A DNA stretch of 64,000 nucleotides from Escherichia phage vB_EcoM_RZ, in sequence record MW598459. The stretch is one strand, 5' to 3'. The position numbers were made by a program, and so were the translations under genes. Positions within the stretch are counted from its first letter, which is position 1, and each line of letters begins with the position of its first letter. Of the stretch, positions 35,138-62,268 are shown piece by piece. The notes below the pieces were generated by a model. The model saw only the letters and a program-made list of their open reading frames with translations, made no database searches and was not told the origin of the DNA.

Positions 35138-35163
35138 AAAGGGACCCGAAGGTCCCTTTTTAT
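35138..35163. terminator. bidirectional intrinsic terminator after gene 54
   Basis: GGGACCCGAAGGTCCC hairpin, A-run before and T-run after. Confidence 0.75.
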
Positions 35164-35450
35164 TTGCGGAATGAAATGAAACCTGCTGCAGTCATTACAG
35201 CTTCTTTCTTAGCAAAGACTGTAATTGCAATTGGTGCTTCAGATTCAAGTTGTCCAGTTACTACACCATTAAAAATATTTTCTGTTTGTTCAGAATTTAC
35301 AAAGTTTTCAACAGGGCGAAGGTCAAACTTCTTATCTTCACCAAATACACGGCGCAATTCATTACCCACCGCGCTGTCAAACTCTTCTGAAGCCGGGATA
35401 ACATTCTCAACTACCAGTTCCTGACCATTAAAGCGAAAAGATGATTTCAT
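35160..35450 (-). CDS. hypothetical protein downstream of alt
   Basis: 96 aa from MKSSFRF; SD GAGGA; first ATG of the longer ORF lies inside the promoter. Confidence 0.5.
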   Translation of the reverse strand: MKSSFRFNGQELVVENVIPASEEFDSAVGNELRRVFGEDKKFDLRPVENFVNSEQTENIFNGVVTGQLESEAPIAITVFAKKEAVMTAAGFISFRK

Positions 35451-35478
35451 TTTGTTTTCCTCATGTGCAATTGATATG

Positions 35479-35509
35479 AACATTGTATCGCACTTCCTTG
35501 TGCTTGTAA
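35479..35509 (-). promoter_or_regulatory. early-type promoter (GTTTACA-N17-TACAAT)
   Basis: reverse complement: GGTTTACAagcacaaggaagtgcgaTACAATg. Confidence 0.5.
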
Positions 35510-35513
35510 ACCC

Positions 35514-45197: not shown

Positions 45198-45439
45198 TGA
45201 ATATACACTCGCTGCGCTTCAACCAGACCGTCAGAACCCAATTTCAGTTGGGTCAACTGGTCACCACCTTTTAGAGTAATTTTCGGATTAATGACAATCA
45301 TAAAACTGCGTGCAGATTCCTGAATAACTTGCAAAGTCGCAGCAGGGAATCGCTGTGATACGCGGTTAATCATCTCTTGAGCAAATGCCTTCACTTTTTC
45401 GTGGAACTCTTCAACAGTAATTGGGGTTTCGCTAAGCAT
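45194..45439 (-). CDS. hypothetical protein
   Basis: 81-aa ORF, overlapping stop/start. Confidence 0.45.
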   Translation of the reverse strand: MLSETPITVEEFHEKVKAFAQEMINRVSQRFPAATLQVIQESARSFMIVINPKITLKGGDQLTQLKLGSDGLVEAQRVYIQ

Positions 45440-45981
45440 CAGATTGTCTCCTGTTTTACTTGTTTAACGATAGAAGCTTTTGTGATATCACCTTTGATAA
45501 TATAACAATCTTCTGCAGTACCGCGGTTTAACAGGCGCTCTGCTTCGTCTTCCGCATATTCTTTTGACACATGACGAGAGTTAATCTCAATCTTGCCATT
45601 TTTAACCACAAGCAATTTCCAAACTGATGCAAGTTTTACTGGCACAGGTTCAACTTCTGGCTTAACACCAACTTCTGCCTGGATGAAATAATCAAATTCA
45701 TCAGACAATGGACCAGCAGAAACAAACATTGCCCCATGATGCCTGTTCTGTGTGCCAGATATTTTTGGCAAATCCACAAAATCATTTTCATCAATCAAAC
45801 GAATCTCACAAACTTTTTTACCGCCGCTGATGTCATCGGATAAAATCTTAACTTCAAACGGAGTCATACCGATGTATCCAGCAATTTGGTAATTGGCTGC
45901 CCAGCCTCCGGCAATAAACTGTTTTTTGGCATTTTCAGATACAAATTTGTAAAACTTACCTTCTTCAAAGAAATCGCTCAT
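45439..45981 (-). CDS. hypothetical protein, N-terminus paralogous to ORF 59478-59846
   Basis: 180 aa; GKFY...KKQFIAG shared with the 122-aa ORF. Confidence 0.5.
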   Translation of the reverse strand: MSDFFEEGKFYKFVSENAKKQFIAGGWAANYQIAGYIGMTPFEVKILSDDISGGKKVCEIRLIDENDFVDLPKISGTQNRHHGAMFVSAGPLSDEFDYFIQAEVGVKPEVEPVPVKLASVWKLLVVKNGKIEINSRHVSKEYAEDEAERLLNRGTAEDCYIIKGDITKASIVKQVKQETI

Positions 45982-46041
45982 TTTGTTTTCCTCATGTGTT
46001 GATGAAATTCATTATACACCATCCATGGTGAAAGTAAACAC

Positions 46042-56937: not shown

Positions 56938-56938
<1 letters not shown>
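56741..56938 (-). CDS. hypothetical protein
   Basis: 65-aa ORF directly downstream of td. Confidence 0.45.
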
Positions 56939-58713
<1,775 letters not shown>

Positions 58714-58714
<1 letters not shown>

Positions 58715-58905
58715 TATATTTTCCTCAAATATTTTTTAACCATATAATATTGAAATTCAAACATTTTGGAATCAATTACCCAAATCTGACGTTTAGGACA
58801 CTCATTCAAACGCACCGCGGAACATCCAGAGGAAAGGAATGAATACTGTTCCTTTTCTGTTTCAGAAAGACATGTTCTTAAAAAGCGGAAAAATAAATCA
58901 TGCAT
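58714..58905 (-). CDS. hypothetical small protein (63 aa)
   Basis: C-terminal part of a longer ORF; ATG overlaps the stop of the 82-aa ORF. Confidence 0.35.
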
Positions 58906-59146
58906 TTTTATTTGCCTTAACGACTTTCCAGTCAGCTTTAAATTGGTCAACATCAGAGTGGTGAATCCAGAAACCAGATGAGCTACCATCTTCATAAAGA
59001 GGACAACCATCACACTCATCTTTCCAACCCATTGCACACAAAGTTTCTTCAGCTTTTTCCAGAGCTTCTGGATTGTTACCCTGGATTGTGAAATACCATT
59101 TACCTTTAACTTCTGAATCTTTGATGCTCTCACGTTGTAATTTCAT
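58898..59146 (-). CDS. hypothetical protein
   Basis: 82-aa ORF with conserved leader/SD and early promoter. Confidence 0.5.
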   Translation of the reverse strand: MKLQRESIKDSEVKGKWYFTIQGNNPEALEKAEETLCAMGWKDECDGCPLYEDGSSSGFWIHHSDVDQFKADWKVVKANKNA

Positions 59147-59221: not shown

Positions 59222-59488
59222 TTAAATTTTATCAAGCCATTTTCCAAGTTTAGTCATTTCCTTGGTGGCCTTTTCCATACTTCTGAACTTAATTAATAAA
59301 GGATGAACATCCATACCCATCACCAGATTGGTTGCAAGACTGTGCTCACCAACAAGCCATAATGAGTATGTTTGAACATCCAGACCATAATTTCTGTCTT
59401 TATGAACTCGTACACCCATTACTTCAAACTGTTCGCTTGCTTTTTCTACTGCATCCAGGAAATCATCTTTAGTCATGTTAGACCCCAA
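59222..59488 (-). CDS. hypothetical protein
   Basis: 88-aa ORF. Confidence 0.45.
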   Translation of the reverse strand: MGSNMTKDDFLDAVEKASEQFEVMGVRVHKDRNYGLDVQTYSLWLVGEHSLATNLVMGMDVHPLLIKFRSMEKATKEMTKLGKWLDKI

Positions 59489-59846
59489 AAGTTGCTTTAA
59501 TCAGTGCAATGACTTCTGCTGCATTTTTGTGATTGACTTGCACATGAATGGTTTGGGTATCAACATCAGGAGCATCACCATCAACTTCCAGGAAGTGACG
59601 GAATTCCCATTCACCAAGTTCAAAGTACTCATCAGAATCACCCATACTATTCAGGATGGTGCCATCTTTCATTTCAACTTTTTCAACAAAATAATCGCCA
59701 TCAATAAAGCACATGTCCAGGACTTTGAAGGAACTACCATGTTGTTCCATCAACTTAATCATACGCGAATTGTCATCAGGACTACCAGCGATGAATTGTT
59801 TTTTGGCAGCAGGGTCTAATACGTAAAATTTACCAGTTTCCATCAT
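59478..59846 (-). CDS. hypothetical protein, paralogue family member A
   Basis: 122 aa; shares DYFEL.E.EF..F and C-terminal IALIKA/IELLQKA with ORF 60196-60558. Confidence 0.5.
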   Translation of the reverse strand: MMETGKFYVLDPAAKKQFIAGSPDDNSRMIKLMEQHGSSFKVLDMCFIDGDYFVEKVEMKDGTILNSMGDSDEYFELGEWEFRHFLEVDGDAPDVDTQTIHVQVNHKNAAEVIALIKATFGV

Positions 59847-59871
59847 TTTAATTTCCTCATATTCAATTGAG

Positions 59872-59906
59872 GGAACATATTATCATGTTCCAGTTGGTTT
59901 GTATAC
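59872..59906 (-). promoter_or_regulatory. early-type promoter with -10 inside inverted repeat GGAACAT/ATGTTCC
   Basis: reverse complement: GTATACAaaccaactGGAACATgaTAATATGTTCC. Confidence 0.5.
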
Positions 59907-60133
59907 TAAGCTTGAATCAAGCCCATATAAAATTCAGCATCTTCCGGGTGCATCCCTTCGCAATATTCATTTTGCATAAAGCGGGTAAGGTCTTTGAGAG
60001 GACCTTGAACTTCAATTTGAATACTAAAGAATTGGGTATCTTTAATGTAAGTCATACACAAAGAAGGATACCGATTACGAATAACTTCGTAAGTGTATTC
60101 AAAATCAACGATATCAATATTAACCTTGGCCAT
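59906..60133 (-). CDS. hypothetical protein
   Basis: 75-aa ORF. Confidence 0.45.
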
Positions 60134-60156
60134 TTTATTTTCCTCATGTAGTTGAT

Positions 60157-60195
60157 GGGTCTATAATAACATAATCATAGACCCGTTGTAAACTG
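60157..60195 (-). promoter_or_regulatory. early-type promoter with -10 inside inverted repeat GGGTCTAT/ATAGACCC
   Basis: reverse complement: GTTTACAacGGGTCTATgattatgtTATTATAGACCC. Confidence 0.5.
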
Positions 60196-60558
60196 CTATT
60201 TGAAAGCTTTTTGTAGAAGTTCAATGATTTGGTCGACGTTATTAGCATCTACAACACAATTAATAGAAACCGCCCCCGAAGGTGTTTTTGTATAATTGGA
60301 GTATTCACGGAAGCAATAAAACTCTTCTTCGCTAAGTTCAAAATAATCATCACCCATGCCATCATCATTATAGATTGCACCATTAGCACAAATGATTTCG
60401 GTTACATAATCATAGCCGTCTGCACTTGATATTGATTTAACTTCAAACCAACCGCCATTTTCTTGGATGATGTCGACCATACTAGCATTCGATGAACTAA
60501 TATCAATGAAAGATTTAATACGATGTGGATTGAACTCATATTTTTTGCCGATTTCCAT
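60196..60558 (-). CDS. hypothetical protein, paralogue family member B
   Basis: 120 aa; paralogous to ORF 59478-59846. Confidence 0.5.
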   Translation of the reverse strand: MEIGKKYEFNPHRIKSFIDISSSNASMVDIIQENGGWFEVKSISSADGYDYVTEIICANGAIYNDDGMGDDYFELSEEEFYCFREYSNYTKTPSGAVSINCVVDANNVDQIIELLQKAFK

Positions 60559-60595: not shown

Positions 60596-60626
60596 CATTA
60601 TGCCTTAGCTCAAAGGACTTGTACAC
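60596..60626 (-). promoter_or_regulatory. early-type promoter (GTGTACA-N17-CATAAT)
   Basis: reverse complement: GTGTACAagtcctttgagctaaggCATAATg. Confidence 0.55.
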
Positions 60627-60639
60627 TACTTTTTGAAAA

Positions 60640-60668
60640 TAAAAAGGGGACCCGAAGGTCCCCTTATA
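60640..60668 (-). terminator. intrinsic terminator after gene 32
   Basis: GGGGACCCGAAGGTCCCC hairpin followed on minus by TTTTT. Confidence 0.75.
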
Positions 60669-61574
60669 TTAAAGGCCAGCCAGCAGGTCATCAAGACCAT
60701 CATCGGAAGGCTCTGGAGTGCTTGGGGCAGTCGCAGTGCGTTCAGACTTAGCAGGTTTGCTGGAAGTGAAGTCTTCCATATCTTTATCGAAATCGTCCAG
60801 GTCAGCACCCAGTTTATCGGCTTGTGCAGCAGCTTTAGAAGCAGCGCCACCGAGAGCAGCTGTGCCCATTACTTTAGAGAATTTCTTCTGATTCTCTTCA
60901 AGAGATTTAAATACCAGCAATTCATTCAGGTCAGACATGTCGTCCCAAAGTTTTTTCTGGAATGCTTCATCATTGATACCGGCGATTTCAGACTGGTTCA
61001 TGAATTTGGAATCATCGTAGTTTTTATAACCGGAAACCAGTTTAGATTTCAGTACGAAGTTTGCACCATCAAACGGACAAGTTACATCAACAGCTTCTTC
61101 GCCCATGTCAACATCAACTTCAACCATCTGGTTGATTTTGTCCATGATTTTCTTACCAAAGCGATATTTGAATACTTGGCCTTCGTTAGACGGAACAGCA
61201 GGGTCTTTAATGACCAGGATGTTAGCCCAGTAAGAAGTATTACGCTTCAGTTTACGATATTCAGATTCGTTTGTATTGTACAGGTCATTCTTATTCATGT
61301 ACGCACACACAGGGCAGTTTTCATAATCGCCGTGAGTAGAAGTACAGTTTTCAATATACCATTGACCAGCATTTTTAAAGCCGTGGTTAACGAGCTTGAT
61401 GAATGGAGATGGATTTTCTTCATTCTTAGAAGGCAGGAAACGAATAACCGCAGAGCCGACGCCATCAGTATCTTTCAGTTTCCATTCTTTTTTATCGTCA
61501 GAAGAGAAACCAGCGCCACCTTTCAGAGCGTTAAGGGAAGCAGCCAGGTCAGCAGGGTTTTTACGTTTAAACAT
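60669..61574 (-). CDS. 32: single-stranded DNA-binding protein gp32
   Basis: MFKRK...EWKLK...[11 protein letters not shown]...LVNHGFK...WYIENC.STHGDY; acidic C-terminus; matches remembered T4 gp32 (301 aa). Confidence 0.95.
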
Positions 61575-61629
61575 AGACATATGATTTTCCTTAGATTATT
61601 TGATTTTTAGCAGTTGTTTTGATTACGTA

Positions 61630-62268
61630 TTAATTATACTTCAAAGTGATTGAAGCGATAAACTTTTGAAATTCAGAATCAAGATGGGGATTCCATCCTA
61701 ATTTGAATTTATTTATAATGGAAATACCGGTCGTGTGTGTACACGGTAAACCAGTTTCTCTTGCCATAATAACTGGACCAAGTCTGGAAGTTCTATGCGG
61801 TCCTATATACCAGTCATAATATATTCCAGCATTTAACCAAACTAAATGAGCACCTTTAGCTATTGTATTAGGATGTTCCCAAGGCAATAAACCTTTAAGG
61901 TGAGAATTTAATTTCATATTTATTTTATGTGATTCTGATTTTGGTTTACCTTTTAATGAAGACTTAAAGGTTCCACGAGCACTCGCCTTATTGAAAAACA
62001 ATGGCGATTTAACCACATTATAGTGTTGATGGTAAAACTCTTCTTCTGACAACACATCGTCACACACATGCAGAATTTTAACGGTTGGTTTTTCAGACAA
62101 TGCCTCAATAAAACGAGATTGTTTGCATGAAGACCAGTATTCTTTATTATGTGAATCAATTATAACACCATTTTCAAAAGCACAATTATGCTTTGACCCA
62201 ATGTAAAAATAAGGAGGCGTTTTATTTTTCAGACGAGTTTCAAATGTAAACCAATATACAACATTCAA
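61630..62268 (-). CDS. GIY-YIG-like free-standing endonuclease candidate (SegG-like position)
   Basis: 212 aa; N-terminal VVYWFTF-x14-YFYIGSK resembles GIY...YIG; located between genes 59 and 32. Confidence 0.45.
   Translation of the reverse strand: MNVVYWFTFETRLKNKTPPYFYIGSKHNCAFENGVIIDSHNKEYWSSCKQSRFIEALSEKPTVKILHVCDDVLSEEEFYHQHYNVVKSPLFFNKASARGTFKSSLKGKPKSESHKINMKLNSHLKGLLPWEHPNTIAKGAHLVWLNAGIYYDWYIGPHRTSRLGPVIMARETGLPCTHTTGISIINKFKLGWNPHLDSEFQKFIASITLKYN

Follow-up and report, generated by a model that had tools for sequence, protein, structure and literature searches.

In a window of 64,000 nucleotides, the whole stretch of DNA analysed, which comes from a T4-like coliphage close to vB_EcoM_RZ, DK-13 and SP18, we examined the spacer that separates frd from gene 32. 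On the minus strand, this interval contains a 120-aa open reading frame (ORF) at 60196..60558 (copy a), which is the first gene past the gene 32 terminator, and a 122-aa ORF at 59478..59846 (copy b), which is 100% identical to protein P0001 of vB_EcoM_RZ. The two are separated by frd.3 (59906..60133, minus strand), an unrelated small gene of 75 aa that matches Pfam PF05798 (Phage_FRD3) with E 5.1e-37. The neighbouring genes are td, frd, gene 32, a segG-like gene and gene 59, and the context of the frd-32 interval is alike in 12 compared phages.

Copies a and b had originally been predicted to form a family of small paralogues in this spacer. The paralogy was borne out, since the similarity is above chance by both pairwise and profile alignment: the copies share 39 of 121 residues (32%) in an alignment from end to end (BLASTP E 3e-16), and each is the other's sole significant match among the 347 ORFs of the window (phmmer E ~1e-13). 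The family, however, proved to be neither unnamed nor local but to be Frd.2 (PF03197, "Bacteriophage FRD2 protein"; phrog_622), which the literature links to GoF and MotB.1 (PMC12152347). Against a curated gathering cut-off of 29 bits for PF03197, copy a scored 123.0 bits (E 8.8e-36) and copy b 113.7 bits (E 7e-33), with alignments spanning positions 1-95 of the 96 in the profile; the corresponding phrog_622 matches had E values of 9.6e-42 and 9e-34. The predicted shared blocks are present, the central DYFEL.E.EF..F block as EYFELGEWEFRHF in one copy and DYFELSEEEFYCF in the other, and the C-terminal block as VIALIKATF and IIELLQKAF. Both blocks fall on columns conserved across the family, in which Y74, F75, E76, E81, F82, F85, I113, L115 and F120 are invariant or nearly so among 68 Frd.2 sequences. 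The two ORFs represent two subtypes of the T4-phage gene frd.2 that parted long ago, the T4 type in copy a and the JS98/JS10 type in copy b. Such a pair is already known, being labeled frd.2a/frd.2b in the GenBank entries of SP18 and JS10.

The original prediction also assigned an early promoter to each gene, including a distant 180-aa ORF (ORF180; 45439..45981, minus strand), and good T4-early-type matches indeed precede three of them, namely copy a, frd.3 and ORF180. The intrinsic terminator of gene 32 (60644..60665, minus strand; a G+C-rich stem of 9 bp and then a run of T) keeps its position in SP18, JS10, LHE83, T4, RB3 and ATK47. Copy a is preceded by a promoter-like site of early type (60597..60625, minus strand) that reads TGTACA-N17-CATAAT (9/12), with its -10 element at 60597-60602, and T4, RB3, JS10, LHE83 and ATK47 carry a GTTTAC-type promoter at the equivalent place past the terminator. 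The early promoter/5'UTR cassette upstream of frd.3 (60139..60193, minus strand) reads GTTTACA-N18-TATTAT (10/12) with an extended -10 TG, has its -10 element at 60163-60168 and runs to a GAGGAAA ribosome-binding site; that directly upstream of ORF180 (45987..46039, minus strand) reads GTTTAC-N17-TATAAT, contains the internal palindrome CACCATGGATGGTG and likewise runs to GAGGAAA. Palindromes lie inside the promoters of both frd.3 and ORF180, and the composite cassette pattern occurs three times in the 64-kb window compared with an expectation of 0.01. The prediction did not extend as well to copy b, for which only a weak promoter-like site could be read from the sequence (TATACA-N17-TAATAT, 8/12; 59872..59905, minus strand; -10 element at 59877-59882), overlapped by a hairpin (GGAACAT-GATAAT-ATGTTCC; 59872-59891). 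Because this site is weak, copy b may be transcribed by read-through that starts at the promoter of frd.3. A homologous site (GTGTACA ... TATCAT) precedes the JS-type copy in LHE83, where the hairpin loop is inverted. In T4, frd.3 is the first gene past the gene 32 terminator and gives an abundant NAD-capped primary transcript; from this transcript and the promoter cassettes, we infer that the frd.2 genes would be expressed early. These genes do follow early-type promoter cassettes, and the region that holds them is plastic and non-essential.

Comparison with other phages indicated that each copy belongs to an old lineage. Copy a shares 79-83% identity with T4 Frd.2 and 99% with SP18 frd.2a, and copy b shares 92% identity with SP18 frd.2b and 87% with JS10 frd.2a. 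Both copies are under purifying selection as judged by dN/dS (0.08-0.21 for copy a and 0.12-0.15 for copy b, within an overall range of 0.08-0.24). Frd.2 was found in 886 phage records, about 80 of which have two copies. Since copies a and b both resemble orthologues from other genera far more closely than they resemble each other, a recent tandem duplication was rejected; of the proposal that these are duplicated, diverging genes, the paralogy stands, whereas recent local duplication gives way to old, separate subtypes found in varying orders. Gene order in the interval differs among T4, JS10, SP18, LHE83, ATK47 and the window, and frd.3 is absent from SP18 and differs in position in T4, JS10 and LHE83. 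In addition, several highly divergent Frd.2 alleles occur inside one genus, and T4 compared with e112 or RB3 shows intragenic mosaicism, with pS of 0.70-0.91 in the N-terminal domain and 0.09-0.23 in the C-terminal part. The promoter cassette of frd.3 in the window stands directly before frd.2b in SP18, a phage without frd.3. The frd.2 pair may thus have been put together by gene-cassette shuffling in the hyperplastic frd-32 spacer, with recombination probably occurring between repeated early-promoter/5'UTR cassettes (PeSL-like elements).

Both copies, together with ORF180, belong to the GoF/MotB.1/Frd.2 superfamily of small T4-like phage proteins, whose N-terminal beta-barrel was published by Kim et al. 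(2025) as an "LSm-like fold" (PMC12152347). The Frd.2 and GoF (comC-alpha) profiles aligned along 118 columns, which take in the strand and helix at the C-terminus (hhalign 96.2%, E 2.5e-9), and a Frd.2 profile searched against a library of 1.8 billion proteins recovered ORF180-like proteins (E 1e-4) and GoF-like proteins (E 7.6e-4). About 18 giant proteins (700-5400 aa) that matched profile positions 24-68 in the same library-wide search were rejected as artefacts because they contain RTX/HCBP_related repeats, over which many weak matches are summed. Structure prediction gave a confident barrel for copy b (AlphaFold2, pLDDT 89.5) with five strands (residues 7-10, 39-48, 51-59, 64-66 and 85-88), which resembles SH3/FeoA/Tudor barrels and is followed by a C-terminal strand and helix. 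In Foldseek searches, the Frd.2 model matched GoF of VR7 (E 4.8e-6) and MotB.1 of T4 (E 1.5e-4). Superfamily members are predicted to start with an SH3-like (FeoA/Tudor-like) five-stranded beta-barrel with a two-helix insertion after strand 1, and the C-terminal strand and amphipathic helix are common to Frd.2 and GoF. The Frd.2 profile gave only chance-level matches among PDB sequences (E >= 0.14), a Foldseek search of the PDB with the Frd.2 model returned nothing under E 0.9, and FeoA was not matched in sequence searches of PDB and Pfam. Within the window, searches with single sequences and with Frd.2, ORF180 and mixed N-terminal-domain profiles found no superfamily members beyond these three ORFs.

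The N-terminus of copy b had been predicted to recur at the start of ORF180. This proved correct (14 of 28 residues identical, pairwise BLASTP E 3e-4; reciprocal best non-self matches within the window), and the similarity spans a whole domain rather than 17 residues, as the Frd.2 and ORF180 profiles aligned over 98 columns (hhalign E 4.4e-5) and approximately residues 4-105 of ORF180 are homologous to the GoF/Frd.2 barrel. An AKKQFIAG block is identical in copy b and ORF180, and since third-codon positions differ at five of eight codons, it reflects conservation at the protein level and recent gene conversion is excluded. ORF180 falls below the PF03197 threshold and matches phrog_5804 (E 7e-70), goF phrog_2980 (E 1.6e-8) and phrog_622 (E 8e-4). 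It aligns with GoF by profile (hhalign probability 96.3%, E 1.6e-9) and with T4 GoF by BLASTP (39% over 49 aa, E 1e-4). By its sequence, ORF180 is therefore an additional GoF-like paralogue; it is present in only 83 phage records, and the related phage VR25 has a separate goF adjoining cef. Because the alignment was shallow, the AlphaFold2 model of ORF180 was of low confidence (pLDDT 50), and it was left out of the fold search.

What the Frd.2 proteins do can be approached through their charge and their relationship to GoF. Frd.2 has a pI of 4.2-4.5 and a net charge of -12, with -10 to -12 already on the N-terminal domain by itself. GoF(D25Y) stabilises gene 41 mRNA post-transcriptionally (PMC12152347), and the second GoF suppressor mutation, G84R, aligns with the E.EF..F block, at R83 of copy b; GoF D25 aligns with the A20-S22 loop of that copy. 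We favour, with low confidence, the view that Frd.2-type proteins are protein-binding modulators of mRNA fate. Each strongly acidic, non-essential protein would be made early and would act as an adaptor whose partner is a macromolecule of the host or the phage, a protein more probably than RNA. The predicted binding face is the side of the barrel made up by the helix 1-helix 2 loop and the conserved E.EF..F helix/strand 5, which is where both GoF suppressor mutations (D25Y and G84R) would lie. Contact would tune mRNA fate through stability or through transcription/termination coupling, and each subtype may have a partner, or a variant of a partner, of its own, which would account for the retention of two Frd.2 copies. 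Nevertheless, wild-type GoF and MotB.1 have little effect in an mRNA reporter assay and a T4 frd.2 amber mutant plates normally (PMC12152347), so the link to mRNA fate comes from one gain-of-function GoF allele. A genome-wide knock-down screen singled out frd.2 as the only T4 fitness gene of unknown function, with a marginal call. The CRISPRi-ART "Fit" call for T4 frd.2 has a score of 0.83 (p 0.027), and every frd.2 guide shown in the portion of the supplement available is called "Not Fit"; given these guides and the marginal score, the call was rejected as evidence of frd.2 importance. Taken together, the frd.2 identity, the origin by cassette shuffling and the acidic adaptor mechanism form the best overall explanation, one that we regard as somewhat probable.

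A host-takeover or anti-defence role, as originally proposed, is plausible from context. According to this explanation, each Frd.2 subtype would block its own immunity or housekeeping protein of the host, perhaps by acidic mimicry of nucleic acid, with paralogues kept as hosts differ. The early-type promoters, the multiple paralogues per genome and a strong acidity like that seen in known DNA mimics fit such inhibitors, as do dispensability in the laboratory (PMC12152347), a hyperplastic region of variable copy number and order, and very different, mosaic alleles within one genus. However, within-subtype selection is purifying rather than diversifying (dN/dS 0.08-0.24), and occurrence in 886 records from many genera seems to point to an accessory role that is conserved more than to counter-defence of sporadic distribution. 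Moreover, none of the matches obtained for the proteins was to a known anti-defence protein, and the literature searched described no phenotype. A PADLOC scan of all seven small spacer proteins gave no match, the library being one of defence rather than anti-defence proteins. On this evidence, we consider the inhibitor explanation possible but unlikely. A further proposal, which we regard as rather unlikely, is that the Frd.2 subtypes, ORF180, GoF and a MotB.1-like protein make up a set of acidic SH3/Tudor-like adaptors that is diversifying, each adaptor with its own host target, and whose target-recognition barrels are swapped from phage to phage by intragenic recombination. At least five family members occur in phages of the genus to which the window belongs, and candidate targets include the RNA polymerase beta lobe, the degradosome, Rho and an immunity protein. 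If this proposal were true, the family would be a host-range or counter-defence determinant, not a housekeeping accessory.

Direct RNA binding is improbable. Frd.2 proteins would then be genuine LSm/Hfq-like RNA chaperones that bind RNA through the barrel, as the name chosen by Kim et al. implies, a proposal in keeping with the listing of Hfq as a structural neighbour and the longer mRNA half-life with GoF(D25Y) (PMC12152347), and with the five-stranded bent beta-sheet of the copy b model. Nevertheless, Hfq and Sm proteins were absent from the structural matches of the Frd.2 model, and Frd.2 does not show the combination that characterizes Sm/LSm proteins (an N-terminal alpha-helix, five bent strands, and Sm or Hfq proteins as nearest neighbours). 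The strong acidity also argues, if only indirectly, against basic RNA-binding faces. As for ring oligomers, Kim et al. could not model them (PMC12152347). Slighter still is the prospect that the proteins are Tudor-like modules that bind the beta lobe of RNA polymerase, as do the interaction domains of CarD, Mfd and UvrD, and so modulate elongation or termination. Finally, chance similarity, or ORFs that are not genes, has only small ORF size in its favour and can be dismissed almost entirely given the BLASTP E value of 3e-16, Pfam scores four times the cut-off, homologues in hundreds of phages, dN/dS far under 1 and a confident structure model.

The outcome is a clean annotation of two frd.2 genes and one GoF-like gene rather than a discovery; since the three ORFs belong to an already described superfamily, the finding is correct yet not new. 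Frd.2 is nonetheless among the most widely conserved T4-like phage genes of unknown function, and the analysis narrows the hypotheses for it: in some phages additional barrel paralogues accompany the two long-standing subtypes, the acidity of the proteins is very high and, as modelled, the barrels appear to resemble protein-interaction SH3/FeoA/Tudor modules, unlike Sm proteins.

Compared with known systems, both window ORFs resemble T4 Frd.2 in their equal length, two-part architecture and location in the frd-32 interval; the T4 protein carries the database name "14.8 kDa protein in frd-Gp32 intergenic region". T4 has a single frd.2 downstream of frd.3, whereas the window has two copies, the T4-type copy upstream of frd.3 and the JS98-type copy in the position of T4 frd.2. 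Shigella phage SP18 (Gaprivervirus) and Escherichia phage JS10 (Dhakavirus) have a frd.2a/frd.2b pair of the same two subtypes in the same interval, but their copies are adjacent, while in the window frd.3 and its promoter cassette separate them. The N-terminus of ORF180 has its nearest counterpart in GoF and shares with it the GMxPF insertion; unlike GoF, which lies beside cef, ORF180 lies in the cd-pseT region and its C-terminal part is larger (~75 residues) and different, and relatives of the window phage retain a separate goF. The likeness to FeoA/DtxR-type SH3-like domains has a low similarity score and reflects analogous folds rather than membership of that family. The terminator with the promoter past gene 32, the palindrome-bearing promoters of frd.3 and ORF180 and the hairpin-overlapped site before copy b would all accord with composites of stem-loop and early promoter at the borders of variable genes. 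Finally, the small genes of the window are flanked by repeated early promoter/stem-loop/ribosome-binding-site cassettes that, by description, resemble the PeSL (promoter-early stem-loop) cassettes of T4-type phages (PMC2839356, PMC4122927), and the occurrence of one cassette before different genes in the window and SP18 is as cassette-mediated shuffling predicts.

All genes of the segment lie on the minus strand, in the td-frd-32-59 arrangement of a T4-like coliphage: td (56938-57798), frd (57795-58376), four small ORFs between frd and 59478-59846, among them Frd.1 (58898-59146, a DUF5417 match), copy b of the pair (59478-59846), the 75-aa Frd.3 (59906-60133, PF05798) between the two Frd.2 copies, copy a (60196-60558), gene 32 (60669-61580) and, beyond it, a segG-like endonuclease gene followed by gene 59. 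The nearest DNA records are those of Escherichia phages DK-13, TH41, UPEC01 and VR20 and Shigella phage SP18 (95-97% identity), and the copy b protein is 100% identical to a vB_EcoM_RZ protein. In the interval between genes 32 and 59, where T4 and SP18 carry the segG homing endonuclease and JS10 and ATK47 lack a gene, lies an ORF of 212 aa starting with TTG (61630-62268, minus strand). The mechanical call for the ORF at 59222-59488 (minus strand) begins at a TTG overlapping the end of copy b. Its phrog_4423 match begins only with residue 5, and 84 aa is the length of the SP18 homologue; translation therefore probably starts with the ATG at 59476, which lies one base beyond the copy b stop codon, a spacing that suggests translational coupling.

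The original observation of a paralogous pair holds, and the two genes are true paralogues of ancient divergence. Copies a and b align end to end with 32% identity (BLASTP E 3e-16), and in a comparison with all 347 ORFs in the window each has the other as its sole significant match. The central block proposed for the pair occurs in both copies, where it coincides with invariant columns Y74, F75, E76, E81, F82 and F85 of a 68-sequence family alignment, as does the C-terminal block with conserved columns I113, L115 and F120. Both proteins match phrog_622 and Pfam PF03197, "Bacteriophage FRD2 protein" (copy b, 113.7 bits; copy a, 123.0 bits; cut-off 29 bits), and such a pair is already named frd.2a/frd.2b in the SP18 and JS10 GenBank records. 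The Frd.2 family, the pair and the link to GoF are thus on record, the GoF/MotB.1/Frd.2 superfamily having been published in 2025 (Kim et al., PMC12152347). Our analysis adds the placement of the 180-aa ORF at 45439-45981 (ORF180, minus strand) as an extra GoF-like member, the extension of Frd.2-GoF homology through the C-terminal strand and helix, a weakening of the LSm/RNA-chaperone label by acidity and missing Sm neighbours, and evidence for mosaic Frd.2 alleles within the gene.

The resemblance noted between the N termini of copy b and ORF180 also held (BLASTP E 3e-4, reciprocal best within the window). ORF180 belongs to phrog_5804, and its first 45-55 residues match the goF families phrog_2980 (E 1.6e-8) and phrog_13003, as well as phrog_3710 and phrog_622; it shares 39% identity with T4 GoF over 49 residues that span a GMxPF insertion absent from Frd.2. 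In profile-profile comparisons, ORF180 matched GoF with 96.3% probability (E 1.6e-9, 87 columns), Frd.2 matched GoF with 96.2% (E 2.5e-9, 118 columns) and Frd.2 matched ORF180 with 69% (E 4.4e-5, 98 columns), the Frd.2-GoF alignment covering nearly the full length of both, including the C-terminal strand and helix. Among 1.8 billion representative proteins, the Frd.2 profile found P0173 (E 1e-4), which resembles ORF180, and P0181 (E 7.6e-4), which resembles GoF. The same scan returned P0168-P0170 (225-254 aa), in which two tandem Frd.2/GoF-type barrels precede the usual C-terminal strand and helix; these show that the barrel has also been duplicated inside genes. ORF180 occurs in only 83 phage records, from Gaprivervirus and Dhakavirus. 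It is not the goF orthologue, because the related phage VR25 keeps a separate goF adjoining cef. VR25 also carries a gene of about 252 aa (cut at the edge of the fetched locus), annotated as similar to T4 MotB.1, which may be of the two-barrel kind. Counting two Frd.2 copies, ORF180 and the VR25 goF and MotB.1-like genes, phages of this genus therefore have at least five superfamily members. Giant RTX/HCBP_related repeat proteins (700-5400 aa; P0135, P0154, P0157-P0159, P0161-P0163 and others) match the 24-68 stretch of the Frd.2 profile repeatedly. The Pfam FRD2 model, too, puts P0135 above its cut-off (58.6 bits), with no single stretch significant by itself. Weak repeat matches are apparently being summed, an artefact that could yield false positives with PF03197.

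The AlphaFold2 model of copy b, built from the 68-sequence alignment (mean pLDDT 89.5), comprises a strand (7-10, the GKFY motif), helices 12-21 (AAKKQFIAG) and 23-36, strands 39-48, 51-59 and 64-66, a short helix (79-84) and fifth strand (85-88) formed by E.EF..F, a low-confidence acidic linker, and a last amphipathic helix (109-120) holding the C-terminal motif. Against viral models, Foldseek returned 53 significant matches, including VR7 GoF (E 4.8e-6) and T4 MotB.1 (E 1.5e-4), with at least six from Pectobacterium phage PM2 alone; against the PDB no match had an E below 0.9. Structural matches to the model include the C-terminal Tudor domain of UvrD in its complex with the RNA polymerase lobe, FeoA (20% identity over 69 aligned residues), VapX, CarD, EF-P domain I, and chromo and Tudor domains. 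Since neither the PDB nor the FeoA/Tudor match list contains an Hfq/Sm protein, and strand 1 of the model precedes the helices, unlike in the Sm fold, "SH3/FeoA/Tudor-like" is a safer label for the predicted barrel than "LSm-like".

Our preferred reading, held tentatively, is that Frd.2 would be an early, non-essential, acidic adaptor whose barrel face, bearing the sites aligned with the GoF suppressors, binds a host or phage factor and might thereby tune mRNA fate. GoF G84, one of two rho-suppressor sites, aligns with R83 of copy b, inside the conserved E.EF..F block, and D25 aligns to the loop after the FI motif; both sites lie on one barrel face (Kim et al., PMC12152347). In the same study, GoF(D25Y) gave a reporter mRNA carrying the gene 41 leader a longer half-life, wild-type GoF and MotB.1 had little effect in the mRNA reporter, and a T4 frd.2 amber mutant plated normally. 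The CRISPRi-ART screen (PMC11879866) names frd.2 as the sole T4 gene of unknown function called a fitness gene; its supplement gives frd.2 a borderline score, 0.83 (p 0.027), versus 3.3 for gene 32, and the frd.2 guides in the passages covered are all listed as "Not Fit". An anti-defence role for these proteins, the idea put forward originally, may apply; our results speak neither for nor against it. Direct RNA chaperone activity does not fit the strong acidity of the Frd.2 proteins examined (pI 4.2-4.7, the sole exception being RB3, with pI 5.6 and net charge -4), which better suits a protein-binding module or nucleic-acid mimic; copies a and b each carry a net charge of -12, nearly all of it on the barrel.

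Copy a has 79-83% identity to T4 Frd.2 and 99% to SP18 frd.2a, and copy b has 87-92% identity to JS10 frd.2a and SP18 frd.2b; judged by their sequences, the two are different, old subtypes. The dN/dS of 0.08-0.24 inside each subtype shows that purifying selection acts on both genes and that both are functional. Read from gene 32 in the direction of frd, the gene order varies: 32, frd.3, frd.2, frd.1 and frd in T4; 32, frd.2a, frd.2b, a hypothetical gene, frd.3 and frd.1 in JS10; 32, frd.2a, frd.2b, a hypothetical gene and frd.1, without frd.3, in SP18; 32, a T4-like copy, a hypothetical gene, frd.3, a JS-type copy and frd.1 in LHE83; and 32, the T4-type copy, frd.3, the JS-type copy, a hypothetical gene and frd.1 in the window. 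Frd.2 is found at 967 places in 886 records of the phage collection, so that about 80 genomes (~9%), including Gaprivervirus, Dhakavirus and Mosigvirus members, have two copies. The subtype distribution and the varying gene order and copy number argue against a recent local duplication; with the age of the subtypes, this variation indicates that old alleles have probably been reshuffled as cassettes. Frd.2 alleles of T4 (L002:1801-2187), RB3 (L007:1501-1866), e112 (L008:1501-1887) and ATK47 (L005:2392-2784) are mosaic. Over the final 28 residues, SGVTKIHCIVDENNVDEIIELLRKTFKK, T4, e112 and RB3 do not differ except, in RB3, at the first residue or two; the N-terminal barrels are far more diverged (overall identity 72% for T4-RB3 and 44% for T4-e112). 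Synonymous divergence falls from 0.70-0.91 in the N-terminal part to 0.09-0.23 in the C-terminal part, a contrast that implies recombination with a breakpoint within frd.2.

A strong gene 32 terminator (60644-60665, minus strand) is followed, before copy a, by a promoter-like TGTACA-N17-CATAAT (60597-60625, minus strand). T4, RB3, JS10, LHE83 and ATK47 have a GTTTAC-type promoter at the equivalent place, and in T4 an abundant primary transcript with an NAD cap comes from the first gene past the terminator. The window holds three instances of the composite cassette pattern GTTTAC-N16-19-TANNNT-N8-38-GAGGAAA, where 0.01 would be expected, one of them directly upstream of ORF180. A third full match, GTTTACA ... 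TACAAT ... GAGGAAA (35456-35511, minus strand), lies upstream of a small ORF ending near 35160-35483. Upstream of frd.3 is a promoter-like GTTTACA-N18-TATTAT (10/12 match). Before copy b the match drops to 8/12, and a hairpin with a 7-bp stem overlaps the site; the claim of a separate early promoter for each gene is thus borne out only in part. LHE83 has a counterpart (L006, about 2957-2976) of this hairpin (59872-59891), which separates frd.3 from the JS-type frd.2; the 7-bp stem is identical and the 6-nt loop is inverted (coding strand GATAAT in the window, ATTATC in LHE83). The promoter/5'UTR cassette of frd.3 (60139-60193) is nearly identical to the one directly before frd.2b in SP18 (L001, 2692-2759); the frd.3 insertion/deletion thus appears to be bounded by a repeated TGAGGAAA(A/T)TAAAATG ribosome-binding-site region. 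One cassette standing before frd.3 in the window and before frd.2b in SP18 is the outcome expected from recombination of the PeSL type, between the promoter-early stem-loop cassettes of T4-type phages (PMC2839356, PMC4122927).
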